This document shows, piece by piece, positions 35,385 through 62,692 of a stretch of DNA of 64,000 nucleotides. The notes under the pieces are model-generated. The model was given only the letters and a program-made list of their open reading frames with translations, was not told where the DNA came from and searched no databases. Both the position numbers and the translations under genes were made by a program. Within the stretch, counting starts at the first letter, position 1; every line of letters begins with the position of its first letter. Source of the stretch: an uncultured delta proteobacterium (GTDB lineage Bacteria; Desulfobacterota; Syntrophia; Syntrophales; Smithellaceae); the NCBI GenBank assembly GCA_963753975.1, contig CAVWEH010000002.1, positions 544,001 to 608,000 on the forward strand, read 5' to 3'.

Positions 35385-35512
35385 TCCAATCTCGATGCAT
35401 CGTGATTGGATAATTCGACCTGCAAGCTTCAGCGCACTCCGTTTCTGAAACTTGGGTCTCATTACAATTTACCAATTCCGCTACGCTTCGCTTTCGTAAT
35501 TGGAGTTTCACA
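35385..35512 (-). repeat. 54-bp hairpin-unit array, locus D (two units plus a trailing hairpin)
   Basis: Minus strand TGTGA-AACT-CCAATT... then TAATGA-GACC-CAAGTTTCAG-AAACGGAGTGCG-CTGAAGCTTG-CA-GGTC-GAATTA (35411-35464). Confidence 0.85.
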
Positions 35513-36007
35513 ATGATCCGCGCCGGAATTATAACGGTAAGCGACCGTAGTTCTCAGGGTATCCGTGAAGATGCCGGCGGCCCTGTCCTTGCCGCCGTGC
35601 TTGCGGATGCCAAGATAGAAGTTTGTAAATCTCTCATCATTCCGGATGAAAAAAGCGAAATAAAAGATGCAATAATAAAATTCGCTGATAAAGAAAAACT
35701 TGATTTGATTTTAACCACCGGCGGCACCGGCGTCAGCCCCCGCGATGTAACTCCGGATGCGACAGGGGAAGTAATCGACAAACAAATCCCCGGCATGGCC
35801 GAAGCCATGCGGCATCAAAGTATGAATATCACTCCCTATGCCATGATTTCCCGTGCCATAGCGGGAATCCGTGGACGCTGTCTGATAATTAATCTCCCCG
35901 GAAGCCCGAAAGGAGCCAAAGAAAACCTGGCTATAATTCTGCCCGCGTTGAAACATGCCGTCGAAAAAATTAAAGGAGACGACACCGAATGCGCGAGCCC
36001 CATCTAG
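35513..36007 (+). CDS. mog: Molybdopterin adenylyltransferase (MogA/MoaB family)
   Basis: TVSDR, TTGGTG, RDVTPDA, NLPGSP. Confidence 0.92.
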   Translation: MIRAGIITVSDRSSQGIREDAGGPVLAAVLADAKIEVCKSLIIPDEKSEIKDAIIKFADKEKLDLILTTGGTGVSPRDVTPDATGEVIDKQIPGMAEAMRHQSMNITPYAMISRAIAGIRGRCLIINLPGSPKGAKENLAIILPALKHAVEKIKGDDTECASPI

Positions 36008-36063
36008 TCTCATTTTGTGCCATGGGATTTGCCGCTAATTTTCGTAAATCATCAAAGATTTTT

Positions 36064-36549
36064 TTATAACCCGTCATGAAAATTGACCAGGTGTTTTTCC
36101 AGGAATTGCAGAGCATTGCGCTGATGCGTCCCCGTCCAATAAATATTGTGACAGGAAGGACACTGATTATACCGGGTGCAATTTTCAAAGACATATGCAG
36201 GCACTTGATTGCGCACTTCTTCAGCGGAAACCGAATGAAGCTTTTTGTTGCATCTAAGGCATATTGTAAACATCTTTTGCTTATCTATCTTCAGAGAAAA
36301 TTTATCGATGATATCATTTAGTTGATGGACGATATCATTGTCTTTAATCAGATATAAACACCCGGAAAACTGACGCTCCACCATGTCTATTCTTTTTGTC
36401 AGCACAATTCTTCCTTCGGCGGCGGCTAAACGCAGCATTTTCCTTCCGGCTTCTTGCGGAAAAACTACGGTATCGTAACCTAAAAGCCGTAACCATTTAG
36501 CCAGCTTTCCCAAGGCAGCGTCGACAATAAATTGGGGATTGTCAAACAT
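36064..36549 (-). CDS. Mut7-C RNase domain protein (DUF82)
   Basis: FIVDAALGKLAKWLRLLGYD, CxxC...CPSC..IYW.GTH. Confidence 0.88.
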   Translation of the reverse strand: MFDNPQFIVDAALGKLAKWLRLLGYDTVVFPQEAGRKMLRLAAAEGRIVLTKRIDMVERQFSGCLYLIKDNDIVHQLNDIIDKFSLKIDKQKMFTICLRCNKKLHSVSAEEVRNQVPAYVFENCTRYNQCPSCHNIYWTGTHQRNALQFLEKHLVNFHDGL

Positions 36550-36564
36550 TTTTTGGAGACATTA

Positions 36565-36867
36565 TTATGACATTTTGGATTCATGAACGACCGGCGGAGG
36601 CTCGTCGGCACGGAGTTCCTTACGCAAATCGCGAATAGTTCTGTTCAAACGACTAATTGTGCGGTTCAAACGAAAACGCTCCACTATCCCCCATAAACTC
36701 GTAATTATTACTCCGGCAAGAAGAGAGCCAAAAATCAGCATATAAGCCGGCACAACAACATCCAAATGCTTGTAATATTGCAGATGTACCGGCGCCGAAT
36801 TCAATTGGGAAAAAGTCACGCTAAAAATAATAAATATTAAAGTTAAAATCAAATAAATTACCTTCAT
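36565..36867 (-). CDS. LapA-family membrane protein
   Basis: Two TM segments, QLN..V.L motif, basic C-terminal coil. Confidence 0.7.
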   Translation of the reverse strand: MKVIYLILTLIFIIFSVTFSQLNSAPVHLQYYKHLDVVVPAYMLIFGSLLAGVIITSLWGIVERFRLNRTISRLNRTIRDLRKELRADEPPPVVHESKMS

Positions 36868-36871
36868 CGCA

Positions 36872-37357
36872 TCATACCTCCTGATGATATTTTCTAAAGA
36901 GAGGAGCAAGATTAGCCGCTGTCGTAGCCACATCCTCCGGTATTACACGCACATTGCCAACCACACTCATAAAATTAGTATCGCCTTCCCAACGCGGAAC
37001 TACATGAAGGTGAATATGATCCTCAATGCCGGCTCCGGCTGCCTTGCCTATGTTCATGCCGACGTTGAATCCGGCCGGATTCATCGCTTCCCGGAGAGCT
37101 TTAAATGACGTTTCTAAAAGGTTGAAGATTTCTTTTCTTTCTTCGGGAGACAGATCCGAATATTCACCTGTATGCCGATGGGGAATAATCATCAAATGAC
37201 CGCTTATGTAAGGATATCTGTTCATCATCACAAAAGTGTATTTGGCTTTATAAAGGACATAATCATCACACTTGACTAAACATTTACAGAAAATGCACTC
37301 TTTAGTCTTTTTGCTTTTAATATATTCCATTCTCCAGGGCGCAAAAATTGTTTCCAT
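36872..37357 (-). CDS. HIT-family hydrolase (Ap4A/FHIT-like)
   Basis: APWRMEY, CIFC, HIHLHVVPRW. Confidence 0.93.
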   Translation of the reverse strand: METIFAPWRMEYIKSKKTKECIFCKCLVKCDDYVLYKAKYTFVMMNRYPYISGHLMIIPHRHTGEYSDLSPEERKEIFNLLETSFKALREAMNPAGFNVGMNIGKAAGAGIEDHIHLHVVPRWEGDTNFMSVVGNVRVIPEDVATTAANLAPLFRKYHQEV

Positions 37358-37375
37358 ATATTTTAAACCCGCTAA

Positions 37376-37868
37376 TTAGATGTTAATTATCCTACCTGCC
37401 ACTTCCTTGTCAATTTCTAATATGCCGATAGTCTTGGAAGACGCAAAATGCCGGTCTGCGGCCGAGCCGGGATTAAAGAACAGCACATTACCCTTTTTAC
37501 AATTTGCCGGTTTATGCGTATGTCCATAAACGATACAATTCGCATCACTAAATCTGGTCAATATTTTTTCCTCCATGCCCCGGGGAGATCCCCAGCCGTG
37601 AATCAAAGGCGAACTTAAATCCTTTTATTTCAAAAAGCAAATACTCAGGCAATTTTTCTTTAACGGAAAGATTATCCATGTTGCCGCATACCGCCAAGAC
37701 TTCTTTCCCCGCGAAAATTTCCAAAACACTAAGATCGACCAGATCTCCGGCATGAAGAATCATATCTACATCGCCGAAATGTTCAGCGATGCATCTTCTC
37801 ACATTATCATCATAACCTGTCAGATGAGTGTCGGAAATGACCCCAACCTTTACCTTCTTCTCTTCCAT
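37376..37868 (-). pseudogene. YfcE-like metallophosphoesterase, +1 frameshift near 37605 (probably a sequencing error)
   Basis: ISDTH, HAGD, GNMD in one frame; IHG, GHTH, NPGS in the next. Confidence 0.85.
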
Positions 37869-37921
37869 AATCAACTGCCAAAGTATTAGCGATAAGAAAT
37901 AAAAAAAACAAGTTTTATTTA

Positions 37922-38001
37922 TAATGAAACTCAGATTTTATAAGCGTAGCGCAGTAAAATCTGCAAGTTGAATTATCCTGGGTGCGAAGCACATCAGGAT
38001 A
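37922..38001 (+). repeat. 54-bp hairpin unit, locus A, plus a trailing GCGAAGC hairpin
   Basis: TAATGA-AACT-CAGATTTTAT-AAGCGTAGCGCA-GTAAAATCTG-CA-AGTT-GAATTA (37922-37975). Confidence 0.85.
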
Positions 38002-38102
38002 TCTTTGAAGTAAAGCTCTACATAGCGAAACGGGATCATCAACCACTATATCCAATTAACAGGAAAAGCTTTTAATTTGACTTTAGTATTAAGTAAAGTT
38101 AA

Positions 38103-40121
<2,019 letters not shown>

Positions 40122-40281
40122 TACCGCTTCGTTTTCAAGGAATAACGAGGCGGTAGTGAAACTCAAATCTCAGGAACGCAGTGAACTGGAATTAGTTAGT
40201 TGTAATGAGATCCAAACCTCAGAAACGAAGTGCACTGAAGTTTGTTGATCGAATTATCCAATAGCCTTTAGCTATGGGGAA
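40122..40281 (+). repeat. 54-bp hairpin-unit array, locus B (two units with flanking hairpins)
   Basis: Units at 40154 (TAGTGA-AACT...) and 40203-40256 (TAATGA-GATC-CAAACCTCAG-AAACGAAGTGCA-CTGAAGTTTG-TT-GATC-GAATTA). Confidence 0.85.
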
Positions 40282-40360
40282 CTATCCAGCATGAGCTGTG
40301 GCTAGGAGGGAGCTGACGACGAAGCCAACAAAGTTAGCCGAAGGAAGCGATGCGAGATTT

Positions 40361-40633
40361 ATGAAAAGAGTTCATGTTTATGTGAGCGGCAGAGTGCAGG
40401 GAGTATTTTTCCGTGCGGAAACTCAGCGCACGGCGATGAATTTTAATCTCACCGGCTGGGTGAAAAATACAGCCGACGGCCGGGTGGAAGCTGTTTTTGA
40501 AGGCAAAGATGAAAACGTCGATAAAATGATAGCCTGGTCCCATACCGGCCCGCCGCATGCCCGAGTTCAAGAAGTTATCACTAATGAAGAATCATACACG
40601 GGCGAATTTAGGAATTTCAGTATTAAATATTGA
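40361..40633 (+). CDS. acyP: Acylphosphatase
   Basis: VSGRVQGVFFR, GWVKN..DGRVE. Confidence 0.93.
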   Translation: MKRVHVYVSGRVQGVFFRAETQRTAMNFNLTGWVKNTADGRVEAVFEGKDENVDKMIAWSHTGPPHARVQEVITNEESYTGEFRNFSIKY

Positions 40634-40950
40634 CAAATACAATTTTGTCATTACCCGGCACACTTGATTTGACGGGCAGTGTTCAATTAAATCATATCTC
40701 CGTTATTGTTAACACCTACTAATATTTAGTGGCGGGCAGTATCTAGAATTGAGGATTAGGGTGGAAAGAGAGTAGCGGCAAGGATCAGGACACGTAAATC
40801 TTCGTACCAGCGAAGCTAATTCAACTACAAGAACAAATACTGACTAACGACAGAGAGGTTAACTCAATTCTCAATGACCATGCCCGGGATAGTGATCTGA
40901 GAGTCAATAGATTTGTCGAAGATGGGTTGGGGCATTGATCTTTCTAACCT

Positions 40951-41364
40951 TCAGACAGATTTCATCTTAAAAAGCTTTTTATTGACGGAGACCACCGGAC
41001 AAGGAGCCTCCAAAATAATATGTTGGGCGTTGGAACCAAAAATCAGTTTCCCCACCTTGGATTTCTTTTCAATTCCAATGAAAATCTGGTCTACATTATT
41101 ATCCTTGGCAAACGTGACTATATCTTCCCCCGGAAAAAGGCCACGAATCAGCAGGCGGGTATCGCAGAGAATGCCTTCCTTTATAATAGAAGCTTTTAAG
41201 TTCTCCAAATTACTTCCCATGGTTAAATCATCAACTTCCTTTGCGCTTTCCATTGAGTGGACAATATAAAGGGTGGCGTTAAAAAGTTTAGCATTTTTCT
41301 TGGCCAAAGCTAAGACAGCTTTATCCATTTCAGTCCCTTCGGCATACGCAACTAAGAATTTCAT
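40951..41364 (-). CDS. Universal stress protein
   Basis: FLVAY, IFIG, IFGSNAQHIILEAPCPVVSV. Confidence 0.9.
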   Translation of the reverse strand: MKFLVAYAEGTEMDKAVLALAKKNAKLFNATLYIVHSMESAKEVDDLTMGSNLENLKASIIKEGILCDTRLLIRGLFPGEDIVTFAKDNNVDQIFIGIEKKSKVGKLIFGSNAQHIILEAPCPVVSVNKKLFKMKSV

Positions 41365-41426
41365 CTTGACCCCCTGTAGCAGATGTTAACTGTCGATTTA
41401 ATGATGCTGTACTTACTTTAAATTAG

Positions 41427-41455
41427 AATATAGAGAAATCAGTTATCTATGTCAA
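41427..41455 (-). promoter_or_regulatory. Putative sigma70 promoter of the usp gene
   Basis: TTGACA-17 nt-TATATT. Confidence 0.55.
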
Positions 41456-41601
41456 CGAATTTCTAACGAACCAAAAAGCATCATATGCCATGATATTATA
41501 AACATTATTTCATCAATGTTTGAGCGTTTTCTTTTCATATAAAATCCTCTTGCTTTTTACCCTAAAAAACATACTGTAGTCTGTCTGGAAGGAGAAACGA
41601 T

Positions 41602-42111
41602 ATGGGTGCTATTAAAGATATTGTTGATCTTATTACTCAACTCAATAGTAGTATACTTAAGATTCAGACGTTGATACTTACGGTTCAAGAGGAAGATGCA
41701 GCACTGGTGTCTGAAAACCTTGATTTGAAAAAAAGGATATTTGAACTTGAAAAAAAGTATTCTACATTTGAGGAAAAGCGTTCTGCACTTCAAGAAAAAT
41801 CTTCTGCTGAAAATTTGCAAGATAAATACGAATTTATCAAAGAAGAAGAAAAGCATTCTGTGCTTCAAGAAAAATCTTCTGCTGAAAATTTGCAGGATAA
41901 ATACGAATTTATTAAAGAATTTGGCATCTATAAATCTAAAGAATCTGGAAATTATTTTTGCGCCTCCTGTTTAATGAAAAATATTGAATCTCCTTTAACA
42001 CAGAGACGAACCGGGTGGCGATGTGAATCAAAAGGTTGTGGTAAGTTTTATACCAACCCAGCATATCAAACGCAAAAACGTAAACCTCGTAAGTATTTTC
42101 AATGGAGTTAA
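41602..42111 (+). CDS. Hypothetical coiled-coil protein with C-terminal Zn ribbon and internal duplication
   Basis: GGAG RBS; AT-rich; CASC...CESKGC; duplicated LQEKSSAENLQDKYEFIKE. Confidence 0.7.
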   Translation: MGAIKDIVDLITQLNSSILKIQTLILTVQEEDAALVSENLDLKKRIFELEKKYSTFEEKRSALQEKSSAENLQDKYEFIKEEEKHSVLQEKSSAENLQDKYEFIKEFGIYKSKESGNYFCASCLMKNIESPLTQRRTGWRCESKGCGKFYTNPAYQTQKRKPRKYFQWS

Positions 42112-42300
42112 TAAAAAGAGCATGGTTTTTTTATTCTCCTGTATCAAGTAAACTATCCCTGAAATTTGGTTTCGTATGTCAATTAAATATTGATTACCAT
42201 TTGAAAGAAGGTATGTATGTGAAAAATTCTAAATGCTCACTTGCAGGAAGAAGTGAATAAGAACAATCCTTATATCTGCCGTCAATTTCGACAAGCCACA

Positions 42301-43482
42301 CTATCGACATTCCTTGATTGCTTCCGCAAAACCTTCCATGGAATTAATTATCGTTGCATCATCAACGCAGAAGGCAATCCGAAAGTAGCCCGGTCCGCCG
42401 AAACCGCTGCCGGGCACAACCAGTATATTTCTTTTTAGAAGCATCTTAACAAATTCCATATCGTCGGGAATCGGGCTCTGCACAAATAAATAAAACGCGC
42501 CCTCCGGTTTTTCGAATTTGTAACCGGCTTTGGCCAATCCTTCACAAAGAAGATCGCGTTTCTTCTGATAAATCTTGGTATCTACTCTTGCATTCTGCAA
42601 TCTCGCGACGATTCTTTGCATAAAAGCCGGCGCATGGACATAACCCAATATTCTTGTGCAGAGAATCATGGCATTCACAAGGTCAGCGCCGTGTTCGATT
42701 TCGGGATTCATCGCGATATAGCCGATTCTTTCTCCCGGCAGGGAGAGAGTCTTCGAATAAGAATAAGCAACAATACTATTTTTATAGGCTTTCAAAATAC
42801 TCGGCACAACGACATCATCGTAGACAATTTCCACATAGGGCTCATCGGAGACGAGATAAATTATCTTGTTTAGCTCTTTGTTCTTTTCCGTCAAAAGCCT
42901 GACCAGATCGTCTATATTCTGCTGGCTGTAAACTTTCCCCGTGGGATTGTTCGGAGAATTGATCAAAACCGCCTTCGTATTTTCGTTGATCGCCGAGGCT
43001 ACCGCCTTGACGTCCAGAGAAAAGTCAGGATTGGTTTTGACCAATTTAACAACTCCCCGGTAATTATCGATGTAAAAAGGATATTCGACAAAGTACGGCG
43101 TCGGCACGATCACTTCATCTTCGGGATCAAGTATGGATTTGAAAATCACGTTTAAAGCACCAGCGGCCCCGCAGGACATCAGCACATGATCCGCTGTGAG
43201 CTGCAAACCGTAGGTTCTGTTAATTTTGTCTGCAATCGCCTGGCGGGTTTCAGCAAAACCAGCGTTCGGTGCATAGCCGTGCTTCATCGCTATCACTTCG
43301 TGCGCGAGCGCTATCAGCTCTTTCTTAAATTCATTCGGCGGTTCCACATTCGGATTGCCCAGACTGAAATCGTACACTTTATCGGCGCCATGTTTCTTTT
43401 TCATCAGCGCGCCTTCTTCAAACATTTTTCTGATCATTGACGATTTCGAAATAGATGATTTAATCTTCCGGGCGATAGACAT
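42301..43482 (-). CDS. PLP-dependent aminotransferase class I/II (aspartate aminotransferase-like)
   Basis: FSLGNP, NSPNNPTG, SDEPY, SYSKTLSLPGERIG. Confidence 0.93.
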   Translation of the reverse strand: MSIARKIKSSISKSSMIRKMFEEGALMKKKHGADKVYDFSLGNPNVEPPNEFKKELIALAHEVIAMKHGYAPNAGFAETRQAIADKINRTYGLQLTADHVLMSCGAAGALNVIFKSILDPEDEVIVPTPYFVEYPFYIDNYRGVVKLVKTNPDFSLDVKAVASAINENTKAVLINSPNNPTGKVYSQQNIDDLVRLLTEKNKELNKIIYLVSDEPYVEIVYDDVVVPSILKAYKNSIVAYSYSKTLSLPGERIGYIAMNPEIEHGADLVNAMILCTRILGYVHAPAFMQRIVARLQNARVDTKIYQKKRDLLCEGLAKAGYKFEKPEGAFYLFVQSPIPDDMEFVKMLLKRNILVVPGSGFGGPGYFRIAFCVDDATIINSMEGFAEAIKECR

Positions 43483-43517
43483 AAATCCTGAGCTCCTTCG
43501 CGACAGCCGTGGAAAAA

Positions 43518-43835
43518 TTAAGCGTCGTGTTTACGGCGTCTGACCAAAATATACACGCCAATTAAAACCAGAACGGCCGGTAATATATATTGGGAATACT
43601 TGTATAGTTCCAGGCCGTAAAATTCCGTAATCAGAAACAACACACCGACAAAAGTGATAAACCATCCGCCAATATCCTTGAATCTCTGAATCAGAGTGCA
43701 AATGCCGACGACAATAAGCAATATCGGCCAGGTCCGCGAAAAAGAATATGCCCCCGATTTACTCAAGAATATTAATATACCAAGAGTAATTAAAATCATG
43801 CCGCCTGTAAGTACATTATATTTTTGTTTCGCCAT
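43518..43835 (-). CDS. LiaF/DUF5668-like four-TM membrane protein
   Basis: GMILITLGILIFL...WPILLIVVG pattern. Confidence 0.7.
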   Translation of the reverse strand: MAKQKYNVLTGGMILITLGILIFLSKSGAYSFSRTWPILLIVVGICTLIQRFKDIGGWFITFVGVLFLITEFYGLELYKYSQYILPAVLVLIGVYILVRRRKHDA

Positions 43836-43896
43836 AAAAAAATCTCCTTATTCGTATTATCTTCAAGCGGCCGGATTTTACTCCGGCCGCATTAAT

Positions 43897-44112
43897 TGTT
43901 GAAACTCCAATTTCAAAAACGTAGCGCATAATCTAATAACCTGAAGGTCGCAAGATGTCACACGTTGAAATTGGTAAATTGTAATGAGACCCAAGCTTCG
44001 GAAACAAAGTGCACCGAAGCTTGCAGGTCGAATTAATGAAACTCAGATATTACAAACGCAGTGCAGTAATATCTGTTAGCTGAATTAATCCCATAGCCAA
44101 AGGCTATTGGGG
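43897..44112 (+). repeat. 54-bp hairpin-unit array, locus C (three units plus a trailing hairpin)
   Basis: Units at ~43897 (with a 36-bp insert), 43982-44035 and 44034-44087, the last two sharing a TA. Confidence 0.9.
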
Positions 44113-44130
44113 CTATCCCGCAAAGTTGGC

Positions 44131-44895
44131 TCATAATTTTTCCGCTAACTTCAGAAAGGGCTTAAACAAATCAATGGGGATGGGAAATAACGTCGTAGAA
44201 TTGTGTTCCGCAGCAATCTGATTCAACGTTTGCAAGTAACGCAATTGCAGCGACATCGGCTGAGTCTCCATTAAAGCGGCGGCGTCAATAAGTTTCTGTG
44301 CAGCTTGAAATTCGCCTTCGGCATTGATAACCTTGGCGCGCCGTTCTCTCTCCGCTTCTGCCTGTTTGGCAATGGCCCTCTTCATTTCTTCCGGCAGATC
44401 TATCTGTTTCACTTCCACCAGCGATACTTTAATACCCCAGGGCTCGGTACTGCGATCCAGGATTTCCTGCAATTGCATATTGATCTTTTCCCGCTCGGAA
44501 AGAATTTCGTCCAGCTCCACCTGACCGCAAACACTGCGGAGTGTGGTCTGGGCAAGCTGAGAAGTGGCAAAGAGGTAATTTTCGACATTGATCACCGCCG
44601 CATTAGCGTCCATTACGCGGAAATAAACAACGGCGTTAACCTTGATAGAGACATTGTCTTTGGTGATAACATCCTGCGGGGGCACATCCATCGTAATCGT
44701 CCGCATGTCGATCTTCACCACTTTATCGACTACCGGAATTATGATGATCAAACCGGGGCCTTTGACGTCGCGAATCCGTCCCAAACGAAAAACCACAGCC
44801 CTCTCATATTCATTCAATACTCGAATGGCCGAAGCCAAAAACATTACGACCAATACTATAACGACAATTGTCGGCAAAGAAAAAGCTCCAAACAT
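44131..44895 (-). CDS. SPFH/stomatin (slipin) family protein
   Basis: [30 protein letters not shown]. Confidence 0.95.
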
Positions 44896-44931
44896 TTTGA
44901 TGATCCTCCTTTTATTGATTTCAAAAAATCT

Positions 44932-46236: not shown

Positions 46237-46268
46237 TATCTTCACCTTTTTGCCTTGACCCTTCCGAC

Positions 46269-50434: not shown

Positions 50435-50632
50435 TTCGACACCTAATCGGCGATTTTCTGAAGAATTTTAGTACTTTATTTTTTCCGTTTTACGATTCAA
50501 AGAAGCCATAAATATTGCGGGCAAACATTTAATATATTTATGATTCTTTCCCTGCGCCGAACCTTTATTTTTTTTCATTTTCATATTTTAGTCAGGATTT
50601 TAGAATATAAGATCAATTGATACAATGGCTGG

Positions 50633-51166: not shown

Positions 51167-51319
51167 TATTTTACCTCCTCCTTAATACGCATCTCACGGT
51201 ATACGTTGTCACGGCTTGATAGCATGATGACAATAAAGGTAAGTGGTATATTAATGTAAAAGCCGAAAGTCAATTCCTTTTTATTTTTTCTTTTTTAATA
51301 ATGACCACTTATAATAATT

Positions 51320-52798: not shown

Positions 52799-52825
52799 AA
52801 CAAATATTCATAATTCGCTGATTTT

Positions 52826-53566
52826 TTACAAATTGAAATTTTCCCCAAAGTAGAATTTTCGGGCAAGTTCACTGCAAGCGATTTCTTCCGGTTCGCCTTC
52901 AACAAGTATTTCCCCTTCGTTGACAATATAAGCCCGGTCACAACAGGAAAGGGTTTCGCGCACATTATGGTCGGAAACGATGATACCGATTCCCTTGTTT
53001 TTTAACTTGGCGATAATTTTTTGGATGTCGGCAACAGCAAGCGGATCAATACCCGCAAAAGGTTCGTCCAAAAGGATGTATTTGGGCGACGTAACCAGTG
53101 CCCGCGTTATCTCCACCCTTCTTCTTTCACCTCCGGAAAGAGAATAGGCATAGTGTTTCGCCAAAGAGGTAAGATCAAGTTCTCCCAGAAGCTCCTGAAG
53201 CTTTTCCTTTCTCTCTTCCTCCTGCATATCAAGGGTTTCCAATATGGCTAAAATATTTTCTTCGACGGTCAGCTTGCGGAAAACAGATGGTTCCTGCGGC
53301 AGATAATTTAAACCTTTGCGCGCCCGCTGATACATGGGATACAAGCTAATGTCTTCACCATTTAAAAATATTTCTCCGCCATCCGGTTTGATCAAGCCGA
53401 CTATCATATAAAAAGTGGTTGTTTTCCCTGCGCCATTGGGACCCAGTAAACCCACTACTTCACCCGGTGAAATCGATAAATCAATCCGATTGACTACTCT
53501 GCGCTTATTATAAATTTTGGTTAGTCCTTTTGCCGATAATTTACTTTTTGCCGATAATTTATTCAT
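52826..53566 (-). CDS. lptB: LPS export ABC ATPase
   Basis: GPNGAGKTTTFY, LSGGERRRVE, DEPFAGIDP, DHNVRE. Confidence 0.96.
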   Translation of the reverse strand: MNKLSAKSKLSAKGLTKIYNKRRVVNRIDLSISPGEVVGLLGPNGAGKTTTFYMIVGLIKPDGGEIFLNGEDISLYPMYQRARKGLNYLPQEPSVFRKLTVEENILAILETLDMQEEERKEKLQELLGELDLTSLAKHYAYSLSGGERRRVEITRALVTSPKYILLDEPFAGIDPLAVADIQKIIAKLKNKGIGIIVSDHNVRETLSCCDRAYIVNEGEILVEGEPEEIACSELARKFYFGENFNL

Positions 53567-54174
53567 AATTTTCCATCGCCCACTGATTCCTGCTTATTTT
53601 GCTCAATCTTTTTTTCCGGCGGATAAAGTACGGCTTTGACTCTTTCTTTTTTCTCCTGATCACATACTTCAACTCTGCCTCGTTTTTCATTCACGTAAAT
53701 AATCACTCTGCATCCTTTTATGGAATTTTTCCCTTCCTTGAGCAAAGCGTTACCGGTCAAAATAATCTGACCGGTATCATGATAATATACCCCCTCATCA
53801 CCGGTGGCGATTCTTTCTCCCTGAGTTACTGAAACATTTCCCTTTGCTTCAATTTTTTCCAGATCGCCTGTTCCCTCGATTTGCATTGTCCCGACTTTGT
53901 CATTTTTGGCGGGCTCTTTTTTATAATATAAAAGAAGCTGGTCTGCCTTCAATACCCGGTCTCCCTGCTTGGCTATTGCGTTACCGGTAAATATTATCAG
54001 CTTCTTTTCATTAAAAGCGTCCATGTGATCGGAATCAATTTCAATAGGTTCATTTTTTTTAATTAGATCTTCCGCAGCGACATTGTTATCTTGAGCATAA
54101 AGACGGGGGGAAACCAAAAGAACAATCAACAAGATAAAGAAGTATATTTTTCTATTAATCATTTCGTTTCTCAA
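53563..54174 (-). CDS. lptA: LPS transport periplasmic protein
   Basis: Signal peptide, OstA-like PIEI.SD...FTGN..A.QG; between lptC and lptB. Confidence 0.85.
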   Translation of the reverse strand: MRNEMINRKIYFFILLIVLLVSPRLYAQDNNVAAEDLIKKNEPIEIDSDHMDAFNEKKLIIFTGNAIAKQGDRVLKADQLLLYYKKEPAKNDKVGTMQIEGTGDLEKIEAKGNVSVTQGERIATGDEGVYYHDTGQIILTGNALLKEGKNSIKGCRVIIYVNEKRGRVEVCDQEKKERVKAVLYPPEKKIEQNKQESVGDGKL

Positions 54175-54729
54175 CTATTTTATTTTTGCTTTTACCATGG
54201 AGGAAAGCTTTAATTGTCCTTTCTTAATGAAAAGGGTGAGTCCCACACCTTTTATTTTCATGAATTTATTTTCCATGGTCACCGGCGCATCGGTAAAAAA
54301 TTTTCTTTCTTCTTCATTATAATTCAAATAATCGGTGTGAAACTTATCGCCGGTATCGGACGTTATTACCACGTTACCTATTATTTTAACGTCTTTCGTA
54401 TCCGTAAACATCTCGCCTTTATCCGCCGTCAATATGAAAGATTTTCCGTCAGGCATATTTATTTTTATTTGCACCCGGTCAAACAAAGCAAGATTCTTTT
54501 TTCTGTAATAAGTGGCGGTATCGGCCTTCATTTCCCATTGGGAAGCGCCTTCGCCGACTTCCGTGTAGACGAAGCCTTTAATTTGCAAGTCGATCTGTTC
54601 CGGTAATGCTTTTAACAAATCTTTCGTTCTGGTATCTTTAATTTTAAATATCACCGCGACAATAATTATGACGACCACGCAGGCGATTGCTATTGACGAT
54701 ATAAGTATTGTTTTTTTACTTAATTTCAT
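54175..54729 (-). CDS. lptC: LPS export protein LptC
   Basis: N-terminal TM followed by a beta-rich region; operon position. Confidence 0.82.
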   Translation of the reverse strand: MKLSKKTILISSIAIACVVVIIIVAVIFKIKDTRTKDLLKALPEQIDLQIKGFVYTEVGEGASQWEMKADTATYYRKKNLALFDRVQIKINMPDGKSFILTADKGEMFTDTKDVKIIGNVVITSDTGDKFHTDYLNYNEEERKFFTDAPVTMENKFMKIKGVGLTLFIKKGQLKLSSMVKAKIK

Positions 54730-54880
54730 TATCTCACCTAACTCCGATTTTCCCCTCTATAGCAAAAAGCATTTTTTGTTATATCATTCAAGATGTCGCC
54801 TGTAAAGATATAAGGAAGATTAGCGGAGATACCCGAGAAATGCTGTTGCTTTTATATAAGATATTCTACTGTTAGCCTTT

Positions 54881-55420
54881 TCAATCGTGCTTCGCAAACT
54901 CATACTTGGCGGCGATTTCCGGCCATTTGCCCTGGGCTTGCAAAATCAACTCACAAATCTCGCGCACCGCGCCGTGTCCGCCTCTGCGCTTTGTTATGTA
55001 ATCAACCGATTTTTTCACGACATCGAGGGCATCAGCCACTGCCGCGGAGAATCCCGCCCGTTTCAACACGGGTATGTCCACTATATCGTCACCTAAGAAA
55101 GCCACCGCGGTTGCCGGCAAATTATGTTTTAGTAAAATTTTTTCGAAGACATCCTTTTTGTTCAATGCGCCCTGATAGACATCAGCAATATCCAAATCAC
55201 GCGCCCGCAGTCGGACAACTCCCGATTCCCGCCCTGTCAGCAGCGCCACTTTAATCCCATAACGCTGGATTATCTTGACGCCGTGTCCGTCACGAACATC
55301 AAAATTCTTCATCTCGCGTCCGTCATCATCCATTATTATCCGGCCGTCCGTCATGACTCCGTCCACATCCAATATCAGCAGTTTTATGCCTTTGAGCTTT
55401 TCTTTAATATTTTTTTTCAT
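54881..55420 (-). CDS. kdsC: KDO 8-phosphate phosphatase
   Basis: LDVDGVMTDG, FDVRDG, GDDIVD, GGHGAVRE. Confidence 0.94.
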   Translation of the reverse strand: MKKNIKEKLKGIKLLILDVDGVMTDGRIIMDDDGREMKNFDVRDGHGVKIIQRYGIKVALLTGRESGVVRLRARDLDIADVYQGALNKKDVFEKILLKHNLPATAVAFLGDDIVDIPVLKRAGFSAAVADALDVVKKSVDYITKRRGGHGAVREICELILQAQGKWPEIAAKYEFAKHD

Positions 55421-55421
55421 T

Positions 55422-56243
55422 TCAGCCTTTCTTAACCATCTCGTCAATCTTTTTCAACATTATCAACAGTTCTTCCAGCGAATCGAGATACAAAGAATTA
55501 GCGCCGTCGCAAAGCGCTTTTTCCGGGTCTCGGTATACTTCCAAAAATATACCGTCCACGCCCGCGGCTACCGCTGCCCGCGCGAGATAGGGCACCATAT
55601 CCCGCTCGCCGCCTGATACTGTTCCTTCTCCTCCGGGCAATTGCACAGCGTGGGTCGCATCAAAGATTACCGGATATCCCATTTTTCTTATAATAGGCAA
55701 GGACCGCACGTCAAAAATAAGGCTATTGTAGCCAAACGATGTACCGCGTTCGGTAATCATAATGTTTTCATTGCCTGCCGCCCTCACCTTTTCTATGATA
55801 TTGGCGGCATCCCAGGGCGCCAGAAACTGCCCTTTCTTAACATTGATTACCCGCGCTTTTTTGGCAATTTCTATCACAAAATCAGTCTGACGGCACAGAA
55901 ATGCCGGCACCTGCAGGACATCCAACACTTGTGCGGCAGCATCAATTTCTTCAAAGCGGTGCACATCGGAAAGAAGCGGCACACCCAGCTTCTCTTTTAT
56001 TCTTTTAAGAATCGCCAATCCCTCTTTTATTCCCGGACCGCGGTAAGATTTAATCGAAGTTCTGTTGGCCTTATCGTAAGAAGCCTTGAAGATAAAGGGA
56101 ATCTTCAATTTAGCCGTAAGTTTTTGCAGATATTGAGCAACATCCAAAGCGGCTTTTTCATTTTCCAGAACGCAGGGACCCGCGATTAAAACGAATCCCG
56201 CGCTACCTCCGATAACAAAGTCCCCCATGTCGATTTGCTTCAT
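55422..56243 (-). CDS. kdsA: KDO 8-phosphate synthase
   Basis: IAGPCV, KASYDKANRTS, PAFLCRQTD, KKGQF, DATH. Confidence 0.97.
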   Translation of the reverse strand: MKQIDMGDFVIGGSAGFVLIAGPCVLENEKAALDVAQYLQKLTAKLKIPFIFKASYDKANRTSIKSYRGPGIKEGLAILKRIKEKLGVPLLSDVHRFEEIDAAAQVLDVLQVPAFLCRQTDFVIEIAKKARVINVKKGQFLAPWDAANIIEKVRAAGNENIMITERGTSFGYNSLIFDVRSLPIIRKMGYPVIFDATHAVQLPGGEGTVSGGERDMVPYLARAAVAAGVDGIFLEVYRDPEKALCDGANSLYLDSLEELLIMLKKIDEMVKKG

Positions 56244-58273
56244 GATTTATTACTCTCCTTGGTTTGTTTCTGTCTCTTTTTCTGCAAAAGTAGAATTTTA
56301 AGCTTGGGAATTTTTCTGGTGGCTTTTGCCGATTCGGGATTGAGTTCATAGGCGTTGGTGTATGCCTTTAGCGCCTCCTGATACAACCCTTTTTTCTCGT
56401 AAGCTTCTCCCAGGTTACTATATAGCTCATCATCCTCCCGGTCATATTTCAGCGCAATCAAGTAATTCTCAATGGCCTTATTCCAATCGCGGCGAGCGGC
56501 ATAAGCATAACCTAAACTGGAATAAGACGCAGCTTTTTTCGGCTCCAGAGCAACTATTTTCTTGTAATATTTTATTGCCGTTTCGTATTTTTTTTCTTTC
56601 AGGTAATACTGCGCAATAATACTTAATACCTCCTTGGTCGGGGGAGAGATTTTTTCATATTGGGCAATCGCTTCTTTTCCCTTGCCTAATTTGCCGTAGG
56701 TATAGGCTAAATTATAGTACACATTTGAACTTTTAGCGCCCTGTTTAATTGCCTTTTCGTAATTTTCGGCTGATGCCGCATACTTCTTTAATTCACCGTA
56801 GGCGAAACCCAGGCTGACATAAATCGAGGCTTGTTGGGGAAATTTTGCCGCCAATTTTTCGTAGTACTTTACGGCCTGGTCGAATTTCTTGTTTCTGAAG
56901 GCCAGATCGGCCAGGCGCTCCAGAGCGTCCGTATCTCCCGAATTGATTTTTAAGACCTGTTCGTACTCGTTGACCGCTTCCGCGTCCATTTTTCTTTTTT
57001 CGTAGGCCACTCCCAGGTTAAAGCGGATTACCGGTTCGTTAGGACTAAGTGAAACCGCCTTTTTCAAAGCTTCCAATTCTTCCTGCGGTTTACCTCGGCC
57101 GGCATAAGCCGAAGCAAGATTGGCGTACGCGGCGGCCTGATTGGGTTGATTTTTGATAATTTCCTTATAATACTTAATGGCCTGATCATATTTTTTGAGT
57201 TGCAAATAAACATCCCCCAAGGCAATCACGGCTGCATCCTTTTCCTTTTCTTTCGAATGCTCGGCAACATATTTGTATTGCTCGATCGCCAAACTCGTCA
57301 TCTTCTTTTTTGTATACGCCTCGCCCAACTTGAACCTTAGCGGATAGTTTTCGGGTTCCAGCCGCACCGCTTCACGATAATTTTCTATAGCTTTATCCCA
57401 CAGCCCTTTTCCCGCCAGGGCAAGGCCCAGGCTGATATAAACCTCCGCTTCCTGCGGACTTATTTTGACCATTTTTTTCGATACATCAATAGCGCGGTCA
57501 AATTCATCTTTCTTAAGATAACACTTGGCCAATTCGGCAAGAGCCGTGGTATCGTCGGGCTTGATCTCCAATATATCTTTGTATTGGCTTATGGCATCAT
57601 CGAGCCTCCCCTGCCGCAGGTAAATACCTGCCAGAATCTGGCGTACTCCGATATCCTGCTTATCCAAGGCTATAGCTTTTTTTAAATATTCGATTTGCTC
57701 TTTAATATTGCCCGAATCCTTGGCAAACCTGAGCCAGTCTTGCGGCATGATTTCAATCTTAAGCGGAACGGCCGCGATCATTTCATTTAGATAATTTACG
57801 CGAATTTTGTAATCGGTTATGACGGTTGAGTCTTGAGGCATAGATCCGCTTTTTATTATTTTATTGACCAGATCGACTCCGCGCAAGAGGACGCCGATAT
57901 CATTATCGCCCTTGCTTAATCCTTCGACAATAACTCCCGTGTATCTGCCCAGTAAATCGTCACTGACTACAGATTTCACCACGAATTCGTCCCGGTAAGT
58001 CAACTCCAGCATTTCATTCGCCGCCACGCGGATATTTTTGCCGTTTTTTTCCATTTCCAGATAATAGAAATGCGGCTTTTCTTTCAATACATAATAGGAA
58101 AAAGTATTTTTTACTCGCAAGGCCTGGTCACTGAAAGTTCGAATGGTCCGGGGATAAAAATAATAGAGAAAGGCAAAAGCCGCGATAAGAATAACCAAAA
58201 AAATCAGTATTCTTCCGATGGGAATCCGCCTTTTCCTTTTTTGCAATCTGCTATCTATAAGTCGATCAATCAT
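56240..58273 (-). CDS. Membrane-anchored TPR-repeat protein
   Basis: N-terminal TM followed by many TPR motifs (LG.AY...G.Y..A...Y.KA). Confidence 0.88.
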   Translation of the reverse strand: MIDRLIDSRLQKRKRRIPIGRILIFLVILIAAFAFLYYFYPRTIRTFSDQALRVKNTFSYYVLKEKPHFYYLEMEKNGKNIRVAANEMLELTYRDEFVVKSVVSDDLLGRYTGVIVEGLSKGDNDIGVLLRGVDLVNKIIKSGSMPQDSTVITDYKIRVNYLNEMIAAVPLKIEIMPQDWLRFAKDSGNIKEQIEYLKKAIALDKQDIGVRQILAGIYLRQGRLDDAISQYKDILEIKPDDTTALAELAKCYLKKDEFDRAIDVSKKMVKISPQEAEVYISLGLALAGKGLWDKAIENYREAVRLEPENYPLRFKLGEAYTKKKMTSLAIEQYKYVAEHSKEKEKDAAVIALGDVYLQLKKYDQAIKYYKEIIKNQPNQAAAYANLASAYAGRGKPQEELEALKKAVSLSPNEPVIRFNLGVAYEKRKMDAEAVNEYEQVLKINSGDTDALERLADLAFRNKKFDQAVKYYEKLAAKFPQQASIYVSLGFAYGELKKYAASAENYEKAIKQGAKSSNVYYNLAYTYGKLGKGKEAIAQYEKISPPTKEVLSIIAQYYLKEKKYETAIKYYKKIVALEPKKAASYSSLGYAYAARRDWNKAIENYLIALKYDREDDELYSNLGEAYEKKGLYQEALKAYTNAYELNPESAKATRKIPKLKILLLQKKRQKQTKESNKS

Positions 58274-58451
58274 TTATTCCTCAACGGTTGAATTTACCCC
58301 GCTGCAGAAAGCTCCCGTTTCCCGCCGGCGGTGAATGCTTTCTGCAAACCGCGGGATGTCGCGTTTAGGACAGGTGCCTCCGGCACCTGCCGAAGGGGCT
58401 CCACTAGTTAAATTTTTCCCAATCGAGGCCAGTCACTAAATATGCCGTCCG

Positions 58452-59343
58452 TCAGCTCCGGGGATGATATTTATGATGTATTTCTCTTAACCTTTCCCGT
58501 GTTATGTGCGTGTAAATTTGCGTCGTGGAAATGTCGGCATGTCCCAGCATTACCTGCACGATGCGCAAATCCGCGCCGCCTTCCAGCAAATGCGAGGCAA
58601 AAGAATGGCGAAAAGTGTGCGGATGAACCTTCTTTTGCAATCCGGCTTTTTTAGCATAACGGACGACTATTTTCCAAAAACCCTGCCGGGTAAATTTTCC
58701 TCCGAAACGGTTTAAAAACAATACATCCGTGCTTTTTTTTTGCATCAATTGCGGCCGGGCCTTATCTATATAAACTCTTACGCAATCGTAAGCGGTTTTG
58801 CCGACAGGAACAATTCGTTCCTTACTGCCTTTGCCCATAACAGTCACGAAGCCCACCTGCCAATTAATGCTGTTCATCGTCAAATTAATCAACTCCGAAA
58901 CACGAATCCCCGTTGCGTACAGAAGCTCCAGCATGGCGCTGTCCCGGAGCGCCAAAGGCCGTCTGGTCTCCCGGCTGAGATAAAATAACATTCATTTCTT
59001 CCTTGCTTATCGTATCGGGAAGCCGCATCCATACTTTGGCCAGTTCTATGTTGGCTAGCGGCGTCTCATCGATTTTCTTTTCTTGCAGAAGGAATTTGTA
59101 AAACCCCCGCATAGCCGCGAGCGACCGGTTCATGGAATTAGCCGATAATCCCTCTTTCTTAATCTGCGTTAAATATTCAATAATTACCTCCGGTGTAACT
59201 CCCGCAAGCTCAGTTATGCCTTTTTCCCCCTCAACAAACCGAAGAAACCGGCGCAAATCACGGCCATAGGCTTCCAGCGTATTTTGGGCAATGCCCCGTT
59301 CAATTAACAGATAACGGAAATACTTCTCCAGCAATTCCTGCAT
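58452..59343 (-). pseudogene. xerD: Tyrosine recombinase XerD, +1 frameshift near 58955 (probably a sequencing error)
   Basis: NTLEAYGRDL in one frame; LYATGIRVSEL, GKGSKER, HTFRHSFASHLL, LGHADISTTQIY in the next. Confidence 0.9.
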
Positions 59344-59457
59344 GGAACTTTTTAACGCAAATACGCCGGCGAAGCAAAGTTTTTTTATTGACTTATTTGC
59401 AAATCTCGTAAAAATGATAATGGAGAAATTAAAGAAAATAACTCTAGGAGATTTCTC

Positions 59458-59904
59458 ATGAAAAAAATCATTATTGCTTCCGATCACGGCGCCGTAGCTC
59501 TAAAAGCCGAAATTGTATCCTTTTTAAAAGCGAAAAATTGCGCGGTAAAAGACATGGGCGTAAATAGCGAAGATTCGGTGGATTATCCCGATATCGCTCT
59601 CGCCGCATGCAACGAATTTAAGACCGGAGGGTATGATTTCGGCATTTTGCTTTGCGGCACGGGAATAGGAATGTCCATCATCGCCAACAAAATCAAGGGT
59701 ATCCGCTGCGCACAAGTTTTCGACCTTTTTACCGCCGAGATGGCCAAAGCTCACAATAACGCCAATTTTATCGCTTTCGGCGGCAGAGTAAAATATTCCA
59801 TACCGGTTACGGAGATGATCGAAAAATTCATGAATTCAAATTTTGCGGGCGAGAGGCATGAAAGAAGAGTCGCCAAAATAATGGATATAGAAAACAAGTG
59901 TTAG
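59458..59904 (+). CDS. rpiB: Ribose-5-phosphate isomerase B
   Basis: SDHG, VDYPD, CGTGIG, HNNAN, RHERRV. Confidence 0.95.
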   Translation: MKKIIIASDHGAVALKAEIVSFLKAKNCAVKDMGVNSEDSVDYPDIALAACNEFKTGGYDFGILLCGTGIGMSIIANKIKGIRCAQVFDLFTAEMAKAHNNANFIAFGGRVKYSIPVTEMIEKFMNSNFAGERHERRVAKIMDIENKC

Positions 59905-59932
59905 AGCCCCGCTCATAACTCAGGTATCTGAT

Positions 59933-60794
59933 ATGGCGGAAGTTTTCGACAAAAAAAAGATTCGCCGGGTATTCCGCAACGTGCAAAAGCACCTGCTAAT
60001 CGGAGAATTAATCCGTCAATTTTCCACCAACAAAGAAGACATCAGGAAAACCGCCTTAAGCCAGATTGATTTATCCCATTGCCAAAATGTTTTGGAATTA
60101 GGCTGTGCTTTCGGGGCTTTTACCGAAGCCCTGCAAGGCAAACTTCATCCGCAGGCCCAAATCACCGGCCTGGATATTATTCCTGAATATGAGCACTTCT
60201 TTCTCGCAGCATGCCGACGCGCGGGTTACACCGGAACATTTTCCGCCGCCGGAGTCGAGCAGATTAAAAAGTACCCCGCCCGTTCTTTTGATTTGATCAT
60301 TTGCAGTTATGCTTTATACTTTTTTGTCGGTATGATTCCGGAAGTTTCCCGCATCCTGAAAAGAGACGGAATTTTCGTTAGCATCACTCATTCCCAATGC
60401 GACATGCAGGAGTTGGTAGAGATTATCAAAAAAATCATGAAGCGAAACGACTTGCTCAATGATAAATCAATCCCTGCCGATAGAAATTCTTGTCGGCCAA
60501 TTTTCCGCCGAAAACGGCGAGACACTTCTGGCTCCATTTTTTGGCCAAATACGGGCAATCGATTTCAAAAATAAGCTGGTTTTTCAGCCCCAGGAAATTG
60601 ATTATTTTCTGGAATATTTTCAGTTTAAAAAATCTTTTTTTCTGATGGAAACTGATGCCCACAAAAAAAATATAGTTGATAAGCTTGTGCGGGAGTTGAA
60701 AGATACAGCGATAGAGGGAAAGACTATCAGCATGTGCAAGGATGATAAGATTTTCATTGCTTCTCAACCCCTGATGCCGAAGGAACCATCATGA
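59933..60794 (+). pseudogene. Class I SAM-dependent methyltransferase, +1 frameshift near 60464 (probably a sequencing error)
   Basis: VLELGCAFG, GLDI, FDLIICSY; C-terminus continues in ORF 60459..60794. Confidence 0.8.
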
Positions 60795-61813
60795 AAAAAC
60801 AGCGCCAGCATTGCCTTTACTGCGGTCGTGCCACCATCAAGAAATATGAAGACAACGTCCGGCGGGACTTCTGCCCCTCCTGCCAGTCGTTTTTTTATGA
60901 AAATCCACTGCCGGTGGTTTCCGCGATTCTCGATTCTTCACGCCGGATACTTTTAGTTAAGCGCAGCCGGCCTCCATTTAAAGGTATGTGGTGCCTGCCG
61001 ACAGGCTTTGCCGAAGCGGGAGAAAGCATCGAAGATGCGGCCCTGCGCGAATTGCAGGAAGAAACCGGCATTAAAGGCCGGATTGTAAAACTCTTGGATG
61101 TTGATTCCTACAAGAGCCGCTTTTACGGCGATTTGCTTTTTTTGACCTTTGTCGTCGAAGAAGCAGGCGGAAAACTTGCCGCCGGCGGTGATAGTGAGCA
61201 AGCCCGGTTTTGGCCGGTAAACAAACTGCCGCCTTTGGCCTTCCCTCCCAATAAACGCGCCTTGGATGCCTATATAAAAAGCAAGAGGGATTACTGGGCG
61301 ATATTCGATTCTATCGAACACGCGAATGAAAAAACACCTTCGCCCAAGATAACAAAAAATCCTTTAACACGAAGGCTCGTCAATTTCATCCTGAAGAATA
61401 AGGAAGACATCATCAATCAATGGCTGGAAGACGTGGCGGCAAATCCGTCCACTACCGAATATCGTAGTGTGGAGAGCCGCACACTATATAATATCTGCGA
61501 CAGGATACTTTCCCAGATAACGCTCTGGCTGGGCGGCCTGCACGATGTTGACAGGATTAGGAGTTTCTACACCAAACTGGGCCGGGAAAGAAAAAAAGCC
61601 GGTTTTAAAATCAGTGAAGCGTTGAGCGCGCTCAGCCTCATCCGCAAGCACATTTGGACGTTCGCGCTAGCGCAGGATGCCCTCTCGAAAAATCTGGAGC
61701 TTTACATGACTTTTGAACTGCAACGGCAAATGACCATCTTCTTCGATCTGGCTACTTTTTATCTAACTCGCGGGTATGAAGAAAATAATGAGACTCAAGT
61801 TTCAGAAACATAG
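60791..61813 (+). CDS. Zn-ribbon Nudix hydrolase with an extra C-terminal helical (RsbRD-N-like) domain
   Basis: CLYCG...CPSC..YENP, GFAEAGE...AALRELQEETG; C-terminal I..QW...LGRER...GF.ISE. Confidence 0.85.
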   Translation: MKKQRQHCLYCGRATIKKYEDNVRRDFCPSCQSFFYENPLPVVSAILDSSRRILLVKRSRPPFKGMWCLPTGFAEAGESIEDAALRELQEETGIKGRIVKLLDVDSYKSRFYGDLLFLTFVVEEAGGKLAAGGDSEQARFWPVNKLPPLAFPPNKRALDAYIKSKRDYWAIFDSIEHANEKTPSPKITKNPLTRRLVNFILKNKEDIINQWLEDVAANPSTTEYRSVESRTLYNICDRILSQITLWLGGLHDVDRIRSFYTKLGRERKKAGFKISEALSALSLIRKHIWTFALAQDALSKNLELYMTFELQRQMTIFFDLATFYLTRGYEENNETQVSET

Positions 61814-61891
61814 TGAACTGAAACTTGTAAGCCGAATTAATGAAACTCAAATATTACAAACGCAGTGCAGTAATATTTGCTAGTTGAATTA
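61786..61891 (+). repeat. 54-bp hairpin-unit array, locus E (two units)
   Basis: Units 61786-61839 and 61838-61891 share a TA; the first supplies the Nudix stop codon. Confidence 0.9.
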
Positions 61892-61986
61892 TCCCGCTGT
61901 AGGCGGAGGAGATCGAAGATATCCGCGGTATCCCGCAGGCGGAGCCTGTCGGGACAAGATTCAATAATGCCCTTAGGAGGGTTGTT

Positions 61987-62629
61987 ATGGAATTCAAAGA
62001 TGCAATGAAACAAAGACGAGCCGTGAACTATTTTGATCCTACCAAAGACGTAACCGATGCCCAGATCAAAGATATAATAGAAACCGCTTCGCTCGCGCCT
62101 TCCGGATTTAATCTTCAGCCGTGGAACGTAATCGTTGTCAAGGATAAGGCAAAAAAAGAAATCCTGAGAAAGGTCGCGTGGGATCAACCCAAGGTAACTG
62201 AAGCGCCTGTTGTCCTGATTGTTCTGGGCGATCGTGATGGCTGGAAAAATGGCCACAGCACTTTTGAGAAGGATTTCGTCGAAATGGTTAAAATCGGCGC
62301 AATGAAAAAGGACCAGCATGACTGGTTTGCCGGTGCGGCAAAATCTATTTATGGATTAAACCCTGATCAGAAAATGGCGTTTGCCTGCAAAAATGCCGGT
62401 TTTTTCGCCATGTCGCTGATGCTCGCCGCCAAGAATGCCGGACTCGACTTCTCATCCGATGGACGGACTTGATGTTGAAGGCGTTAAGAAGGCTTTTAAC
62501 ATACCCGATCAATACTGGGTTCCTCTTTTACTGGCAATCGGTCATTTCGATAAAAGCAAAACTCTTCTTCCGGCAAAATGGAGAAAAAGCTATAATGAGA
62601 TAGTAGTGAGTTTTAATGACACTCGCTGA
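61987..62629 (+). pseudogene. Nitroreductase family protein, +1 frameshift near 62449 (probably a sequencing error)
   Basis: RRAVNYF, APSGFNLQPW; continues as SHPMDG...LLAIG in ORF 62435..62629. Confidence 0.87.
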
Positions 62630-62692
62630 AAACGAGTATCGCGAAGTTTGAAGCGTAAGTGGAATTATCCCAGGAGCGTAGCGACGCGGGAT
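62614..62692 (+). repeat. 54-bp hairpin unit, locus F (divergent), plus a trailing hairpin
   Basis: TAATGA-CACT-CGCTGAAAAC-GAGTATCGCGAA-GTTTGAAGCG-TA-AGTG-GAATTA (62614-62667). Confidence 0.75.

Follow-up and report, generated by a model that had tools for sequence, protein, structure and literature searches.

Among described systems, two come closest to the repeats considered here. PATEs are reported as gene-less derivatives of IS200/IS605 elements (PMC10055086; mechanism in PMC6006769), a group for which TTTAT is a reported target motif (PMC10055086) and whose transposase, TnpA, is described as relying on hairpins, and on a guide located at their foot, to cut single-stranded DNA (ssDNA) (PMC6006769). 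REP, BIME and REPIN sequences are reported as high-copy intergenic ssDNA hairpins with bulged stems, mosaic arrangements and a patchy distribution (PMC3733652, PMC6006769, PMC3333891), all of which are features shared by the family described below. That family consists of 54-nt hairpin units (hairpin A), found in a 64,000-nt stretch of DNA, hereafter the window, from an uncultured member of the Smithellaceae (GenBank assembly GCA_963753975.1, contig CAVWEH010000002.1, positions 544,001 to 608,000). An initial annotation of the window had described the unit but had missed the larger elements to which it belongs. The 54-nt hairpin is indeed real; it is the 5′ module of these elements, which very probably are mobile and fold as ssDNA. 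In our estimate it is about an even chance (probability roughly 0.5) that they are non-autonomous elements moved in trans by an IS200-type (TnpA) transposase of the Y1/HUH class. The family works like PATEs and like REP/BIME sequences, although it agrees with the former only in part.

A scan of both strands of the window placed all eight complete units at the coordinates and on the strands that the initial annotation had given, with 3-4 of 4 and 8-10 of 10 pairs formed in the two stems. Elsewhere in the window there are 31 loose matches to the unit ends, none of which (0/31) pairs in both stems. A covariance model gives 10 strong matches and 1 weak match in the window and misses the unit at 43897, which is split by a 36-nt loop insert. 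In the genome holding the window (G000; 2.43 Mb, 95% complete), 95 units pass a strict stem filter, an nhmmer profile at E<=0.1 gives 233 matches in 134 clusters, and an anchor pattern matches 75 times. A chance origin is excluded, because one shuffled genome gives 0 matches for the profile and 0 for the anchor pattern. The covariance model accepts 144 of the 150 candidates scored in G000. Copies are mostly intergenic, only 15 of the 134 clusters overlapping called open reading frames (ORFs), and the genomic context of the clusters matches the background; the units of the window are surrounded by housekeeping genes. The multi-unit clusters lie on a single strand in 61 of 63 cases. Comparison with Rfam, which the initial annotation had proposed, assigned the unit to no described family: Rfam 15 at the gathering score yields one tRNA only in the window.

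The covariation of the stems noted in that annotation is borne out by 54 aligned units, in which 95.2% of the cells pair versus 76.4% in shuffles (0/500 shuffles reach the observed value). When the register of the same alignment is slid, 23-39% of the cells pair, and double changes are seen at 17 of the 20 pairs. Moreover, in a set of 405 distinct units, chosen by anchor positions that lie beyond the main stems, the top 15 pairs by corrected mutual information are all predicted pairs. The unit copies are related, hence these covariation counts are not independent events, and the statistics are not tree-aware. Unit positions 1 and 54 also covary as a pair (TA in 329/405 units, CG in 51/405), and the tandem G·A mismatch that had been described is invariant, at positions 5-6/49-50. 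The "12-nt loop" on the 10-bp stem is itself structured and holds a 2-bp stem closed by a (G/A)NA triloop. In 92 stem-selected units, both pairs of this inner stem are present in 80 and the triloop in 81. Eight of the same 92 units form a subfamily with a second tandem GA/GA replacing two Watson-Crick pairs, and among the 405 units the second GA/GA occurs at its two columns in 51 and 72, respectively. Such an exchange fits folding of the TAATGA strand alone. Downstream of the clusters, C-(G/A)NA-G triloops are found 109 times on the TAATGA strand and 13 times on the opposite strand (17 expected), and GNRA tetraloops 12 and 14 times on the two strands (29 expected), so the latter show no excess.

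Mini-hairpins of the (G/A)NA type are reported to be far more stable as DNA than as RNA (PMC13037366), and tandem GA mismatches to stack strongly in DNA (PMC8163305). The units occur in both orientations relative to genes, in agreement with the initial annotation: between co-oriented genes of G000, 48 are sense and 46 antisense, showing no RNA polarity. Because the tandem G·A pairs and the triloops favor one strand, GNRA loops are not in excess and there is no sense/antisense bias, the unit most likely folds as DNA rather than RNA. We infer folding as DNA in the cell, with the folded strand under selection. The covariation and the one-strand triloops support the earlier view that structure rather than sequence is conserved and that a single strand folds; conservation of structure and a one-strand fold imply, in turn, a protein that reads the folded ssDNA. 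Tandem sheared G·A pairs and GNA/ANA triloops are known mainly from nuclear magnetic resonance and melting studies. The unit is a natural, deeply covarying ssDNA fold, common to a syntrophic deltaproteobacterial family and some Bacteroidota.

Hairpin A is rarely found alone. In 81 of the 95 strict units a second hairpin begins right after it, with TCC, ATCC, TACC or the like, and in 9 it is directly followed by another unit; about half of the 95 abut or sit within another module. Three carriers recur: A with a flush hairpin B, A with a three-way junction, and A with B and IS200-type ends. The three-way junction type ends in CCCGTGRT, a motif present with at most one mismatch in 75 of the 134 G000 clusters. 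The ends of this type are fixed by four tandem copies of a 94-nt element composed of the unit and the three-way junction (G000:C4:307575-307950; a similar array is seen in G013, L217). The geometry of hairpin A is fixed across two phyla, while hairpin B varies.

Empty orthologous sites, which the initial annotation had suggested looking for, were found at several loci. The cleanest pair is in lptE, where G000 has a 138-nt in-frame insert and G010 and G011 are empty. The mntP gene has an in-frame insert in G000 and G011 and is empty in G010, G013 and G006, and a yhbQ-like gene of G020 carries a 132-nt in-frame insert. In the window, the element in the fusA-mog spacer (35322..35513) is absent in G013, G011, G010 and G002. 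It is also absent in contigs of 3/3 public runs (joint 35318->35513), the contigs being low-share, and contigs of 2/3 runs skip exactly 35385-35464, although these may derive from other copies of the host unit. At the ligA site (37922), related but partly different elements are present in G013, G011 and G002, and none in G014. The block 40113-40356, including the cluster at 40154, is wholly absent in G013; at 43897, relatives hold differently nested versions or an empty spacer; and the pair at 61786 is absent in G011. Comparison with 800 kb of two relatives revealed further empty sites, in both directions. Insertions differ between species even within the richest clade, which has no Y1 gene. 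These elements remodel intergenic regions, stop codons and even coding frames.

In 22 cases, an A+B element is nested at G49|A50 of another unit, with its start at unit position 1 and its end at the base of hairpin B. No target duplication is present at these 22 junctions. In 20 of them, position 3 of the host left arm has kept a pairing partner (Watson-Crick or G·T) in the host remnant on the right side of the insert, so the junctions are exact and nothing was duplicated. The three "end-variant" units of the initial annotation (35465, 40154 and 43897) are explained in the same way: they are real units, not variants, each being a whole unit cut after G49 by a nested element. Other insertion points are the triloop (G|N), GAAT|TA, or a tandem position after an element end. 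The two ends of junction-type insertions share 0-3 nt, and the variable base at the right end does not follow the left flank (11/45 vs 1/5, p=1; low power). The element ends are not inverted repeats. With their exact junctions, these elements provide ready oligonucleotide substrates for testing how REP/BIME-like mosaics are built and whether an IS200 transposase is able to carry an extruded left-end passenger.

Of the 36 genomes examined from the host family (Smithellaceae-like), 26 contain the pattern, copy numbers across the 36 being 0-160; it is present in 0/24 genomes of other families of the same order. In a sample of the phylum, it is found in 5 of 7 genomes of the family, and 3 of 393 others have single matches that are unpaired by eye. 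In one order of Bacteroidota (Bacteroidales), 16 of 121 genomes have the unit according to the covariance model. Named hosts among the matches listed are mostly Smithella, Smithellaceae, Syntrophaceae and unclassified Deltaproteobacteria; further hosts among them are Bacteroidales, Flavobacteriales, Mariniphaga and one Ca. Buchananbacteria contig, a range to be taken as a lower bound. The pattern is also present at 4 viral-contig loci, Mu-type phage-like judging by their ORFs. Three further viral-contig patterns gave 0 matches, and the 35320-35515 element has no match in GenBank phages or PLSDB plasmids. In three Bacteroidota genomes (L558, L562 and L571), an mnmE-like GTPase gene has a unit at its stop codon.

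We propose that hairpin A would serve as the invariant 5′ module of gene-less, non-autonomous elements that move as folded ssDNA, each consisting of A followed without spacer by hairpin B, by a three-way junction, or by IS200-derived left and right ends. Folding would place the two ends of the element side by side in the fashion of a nicked dumbbell. Excision would be followed by joining into ssDNA that is AT-rich or unpaired, with no duplication of the target, possibly through a closed dumbbell or circular intermediate formed by end-to-end joining. The enzyme would be an IS200-type TnpA, supplied in trans and since lost from many carriers, and repeated insertion into older copies would produce BIME-like mosaics on the same strand.

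Comparison with autonomous IS200 copies provides some clues regarding this enzyme. In the host family, in Bacteroidota and in viral contigs, autonomous elements with an IS200-group tnpA have a left end with a GCT(C)TGC hairpin after an AT-rich flank, and their right end finishes in GTTCA. In G061 (Bacteroidales), 15 of the 20 examined copies (of 46) consist of the unit and B followed by IS200-type left and right ends, and 11 of the 20 have a TTAAT flank. Because copies with IS200-type ends have different flanks, this composite appears to have spread as a PATE. The IS200-type right end is also present in 6 of 27 other Bacteroidales loci, the GCTTGC hairpin is found in 18 of the 134 G000 clusters, and some Smithella-type composites have a third arm similar to the left end of the IS200 group; IS200-type ends are absent from the two-hairpin type. 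GTGA-type starts are mostly preceded by TTTAT, and a candidate target motif abuts the left end in these (TTTAT) and in the G061 composites (TTAAT), but not in the G|A and loop insertions. Unit positions 51-54 lie at the foot of hairpin B. The elements share with PATEs the lack of a gene, of terminal inverted repeats and of target duplication, as well as one-strand hairpins, the AT-rich flank abutting the left end and, in some composites, real IS200-type ends. The end hairpins of IS200 type and the AT-rich, target-like flank seen in many composites point to a Y1 (HUH) transposase acting in trans.

Other data weigh against an IS200-type transposase. No Y1 gene and no TnpB are present in G000 (95% complete), and a Y1 match is missing in 5 of 12 unit-rich genomes, G000 among them (completeness 58-98%). 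None of 79 Y1 loci (0/79, including all 11 in unit-rich genomes of the family, and covering 50 of the 65 host-family matches) is flanked by units, and 2/79 have a unit on a single side. The unit is never carried by autonomous IS200 copies; in G061, the IS200 query finds no matching TnpA at E<=1e-20; and the co-occurrence of IS200 TnpA and the unit in Bacteroidales is weak (3/7 vs 11/94, p=0.054). The elements also differ from PATEs in having a 54-nt front module that is lacking in autonomous IS200, in lacking IS200 hairpins in most copies, in occurring in G000 without TnpA, and in their hairpins, which are flush with the ends, whereas known IS200/IS605 hairpins are subterminal. Insertions at G|A and at G|N of the loop do not fit the ...AT| target rule. 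No guide tetranucleotide was identified, no guide-target covariation test having been made, and the leading/lagging-strand bias is not significant (69/119, p=0.10). Several empty sites, lying in AT-rich spacers, deviate by 1-3 nt from the predicted scar, and the lptE insert, which is of the junction type, has ATT at both ends, so that a short duplication is formally possible there.

A possible but less likely alternative is that hairpin A is read by a dedicated, unrecognised enzyme, for instance a nuclease/ligase that lacks annotation or an ssDNA strand-exchange protein of the host. This enzyme would cut at the foot of A and at the sheared G·A pairs of other copies, with IS200 ends being no more than frequent landing sites and occasional vehicles. 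It would account for the constancy of A beside a variable B in two phyla, for the frequency with which strict units abut or enter other modules, and for the G|A and G|N targets, which are structural rather than sequence motifs. It would also suit the richest clade, where insertions differ among species without Y1, and the absence of the unit from autonomous IS200 copies. However, when 1385 ORFs next to 825 unit matches were clustered, the 45 largest clusters contained only housekeeping families and ORFs read through repeats, and no candidate gene was seen among the ORFs beside units. Slightly less likely is that the two-hairpin element is a self-contained "dumbbell" ssDNA transposon of ~80 nt, with an enzyme from a family not yet linked to transposition. 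That enzyme would recognise the geometry of tandem G·A, bulge and triloop in hairpin A, cut at the A foot and at sheared G·A pairs of other folded DNA, and thereby insert the element scar-free into other elements, IS200 ends and protein genes of different phyla. If an enzyme other than TnpA were responsible, it would represent a new scar-free ssDNA cut-and-join activity. As for enzyme genes located beside units, the initial annotation had suggested looking for units on either side of a gene for a RAYT, a GIY-YIG protein or an integrase. None of the RAYT and GIY-YIG genes proved to lie between units, and the only tyrosine-recombinase gene that does is the xerC-like gene of the chromosome, a position that it shares with many other housekeeping genes. 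A small GIY-YIG ssDNA nuclease resembling Ssn, cutting beside the hairpin and leaving its spread to host repair, is improbable. Ssn nucleases are reported to cleave ssDNA near their own hairpin repeats (NTS/SRM), which are thought to be read as ssDNA (PMC11893778), and of the 3 small GIY-YIG genes in G000 one carries a unit at its 3′ end. However, this gene is an orthologue of YhbQ-like type that unit-poor genomes also possess and that is free of units in the unit-rich G005 and G010. Units are near or inside only 4/50 GIY-YIG loci and on both sides of 0/50, their motif differs from NTS/SRM, and the true Ssn-type genes of the host family are flanked by a different repeat of GTCATT type.

Retention of the unit as a structured RNA in untranslated regions (a terminator, stabiliser or RNase site) is very improbable. 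In its favor are the mainly intergenic location of the copies, the existence of tandem G·A pairs in RNA as well and the good folding of the TAATGA strand with RNA parameters, but the even orientation, the background-like context, the DNA-type triloops without GNRA excess, the patchy presence at orthologous sites and the lack of an Rfam match all argue against it. Least probable of all is the notion that the units are attC-like sites of a dispersed integron. The analogy to attC or REP drawn in the initial annotation is apt for REP, whereas for attC it is inapt, since cassette arrays are lacking and an integron integrase was not seen next to units. The two do have in common a folded single strand with extrahelical bases, a fixed 2-nt bulge, one-strand polarity and conservation of structure over sequence, and the xerC-like gene with units on both sides would be consistent with a recombinase. 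However, the neighbours of units are housekeeping genes, the unit itself is the mobile cargo, and the elements insert whole into genes. Moreover, the 5 tyrosine-recombinase matches in G000 appear to be an xerD-like gene, an xerC-like gene, another integrase and two remnants, in a search that included no integron-specific profile. Among further candidates, a DDE-derived MITE was rejected, since positions 1/54 covary as a pair rather than forming a duplication and there are no terminal inverted repeats. Reverse transcriptases were rejected as movers because the family is absent from most unit-rich genomes, and tyrosine recombinases and GIY-YIG proteins because their genes do not track the units.

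Likeness to REP sequences does not extend to the REP/RAYT system, as the units have no GTAG or CGTC at the hairpin foot (by flank and column counts) and flank no RAYT gene. In contrast to the inverted doublets of REP/BIME, unit clusters are head-to-tail, nested and nearly always one-stranded. Streptococcal BOX and protein-inserting small repeats resemble the family in their modular hairpin chains and occasional in-frame insertion into proteins (PMC3184786). These repeats are, however, described as MITE-like and discussed at the RNA level (PMC3184786), unlike the unit family with its DNA-type loops and lack of duplication. No description of the hairpin family was found in the literature searched, ISfinder and most subscription papers lying outside that search; its novelty may be affected by motif tables in PMC5737381 and PMC11893778.

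The copies in the window illustrate the modes of assembly described above. In the fusA-mog spacer, the composite element at 35322..35513 (minus strand) consists of a host unit (35465-35513) cut after G49 by a nested two-hairpin element at 35385..35464, itself composed of a unit (35411-35464) and flush hairpin B (35385-35410) and showing no target duplication. The remaining part, 35322-35384, is the host remnant with a three-way-junction module ending in CCCGTGGT. All other copies are on the plus strand. Upstream of ligA, a unit (37922-37975) is followed by hairpin B (37976-37999). In the nested cluster 40154..40284, the host unit 40154-40202 is cut after G49 by a unit (40203-40256) with its hairpin B (40257-40279), the insert thus spanning 40203-40279, and the host remnant is at 40280-40284. 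The nested cluster 43897..44125 has a host unit at 43897-43981, including the 36-nt loop insert 43929-43964, then a unit at 43982-44035, an overlapping unit at 44034-44087, hairpin B at 44088-44113 and a host remnant at 44114-44125. The tandem pair at 61786..61954 comprises units 61786-61839 and 61838-61891, a junction module (61892-61929) and a hairpin (61930-61954); a NUDIX ORF (60791-61813) stops inside its first unit. Finally, 62614..62702 holds a unit of the second-GA/GA subfamily (62614-62667), hairpin B (62668-62691) and the start remnant of a further unit (62692-62702).

Other repeats are associated with some of these loci. The loop insert 43929-43964 consists of nested micro-hairpins of TAACC type, ~16-20 nt, which occur in 35 of the 134 G000 clusters; a micro-hairpin of this type is also found at L037, within a GTAG-type repeat that is unrelated to the units and adjoins a RAYT-like gene. 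The cluster at 40154 is enclosed by a larger, different repeat (~40113-40356), with a stem arm at 40119-40153 and a right part rich in GACGACGAAGCC. Elsewhere in G000, an SLX1-like GIY-YIG gene (L002:1480-1830, G000:C1 ~309200-309550) is flanked by a separate repeat of CCCCGTTAGA type, and a similar repeat lies inside the loop of a unit at C2 ~119250. A small GIY-YIG gene (L003:1405-1850, G000:C5 ~719300-719750) is located between a duplicated 5′ tRNA half and the intact tRNA; the tRNA-half copy carries inserted mini-hairpins, and the same layout is seen in G003 (L389). At L476:1058-2244 of G000, an HTH-like gene is followed by a 292-aa reverse transcriptase, retron-like by eye. In the window, an xerD-like gene (58452-59487, minus strand) appears to be split over two overlapping ORFs and a nitroreductase ORF (61987-62472) looks short against its relatives, both possibly owing to assembly indels. 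The minus strand also encodes, at 16766-24274, a 2502-aa protein with an N-terminal glycosyl hydrolase 108 and peptidoglycan-binding domain and many RTX calcium-binding repeats.

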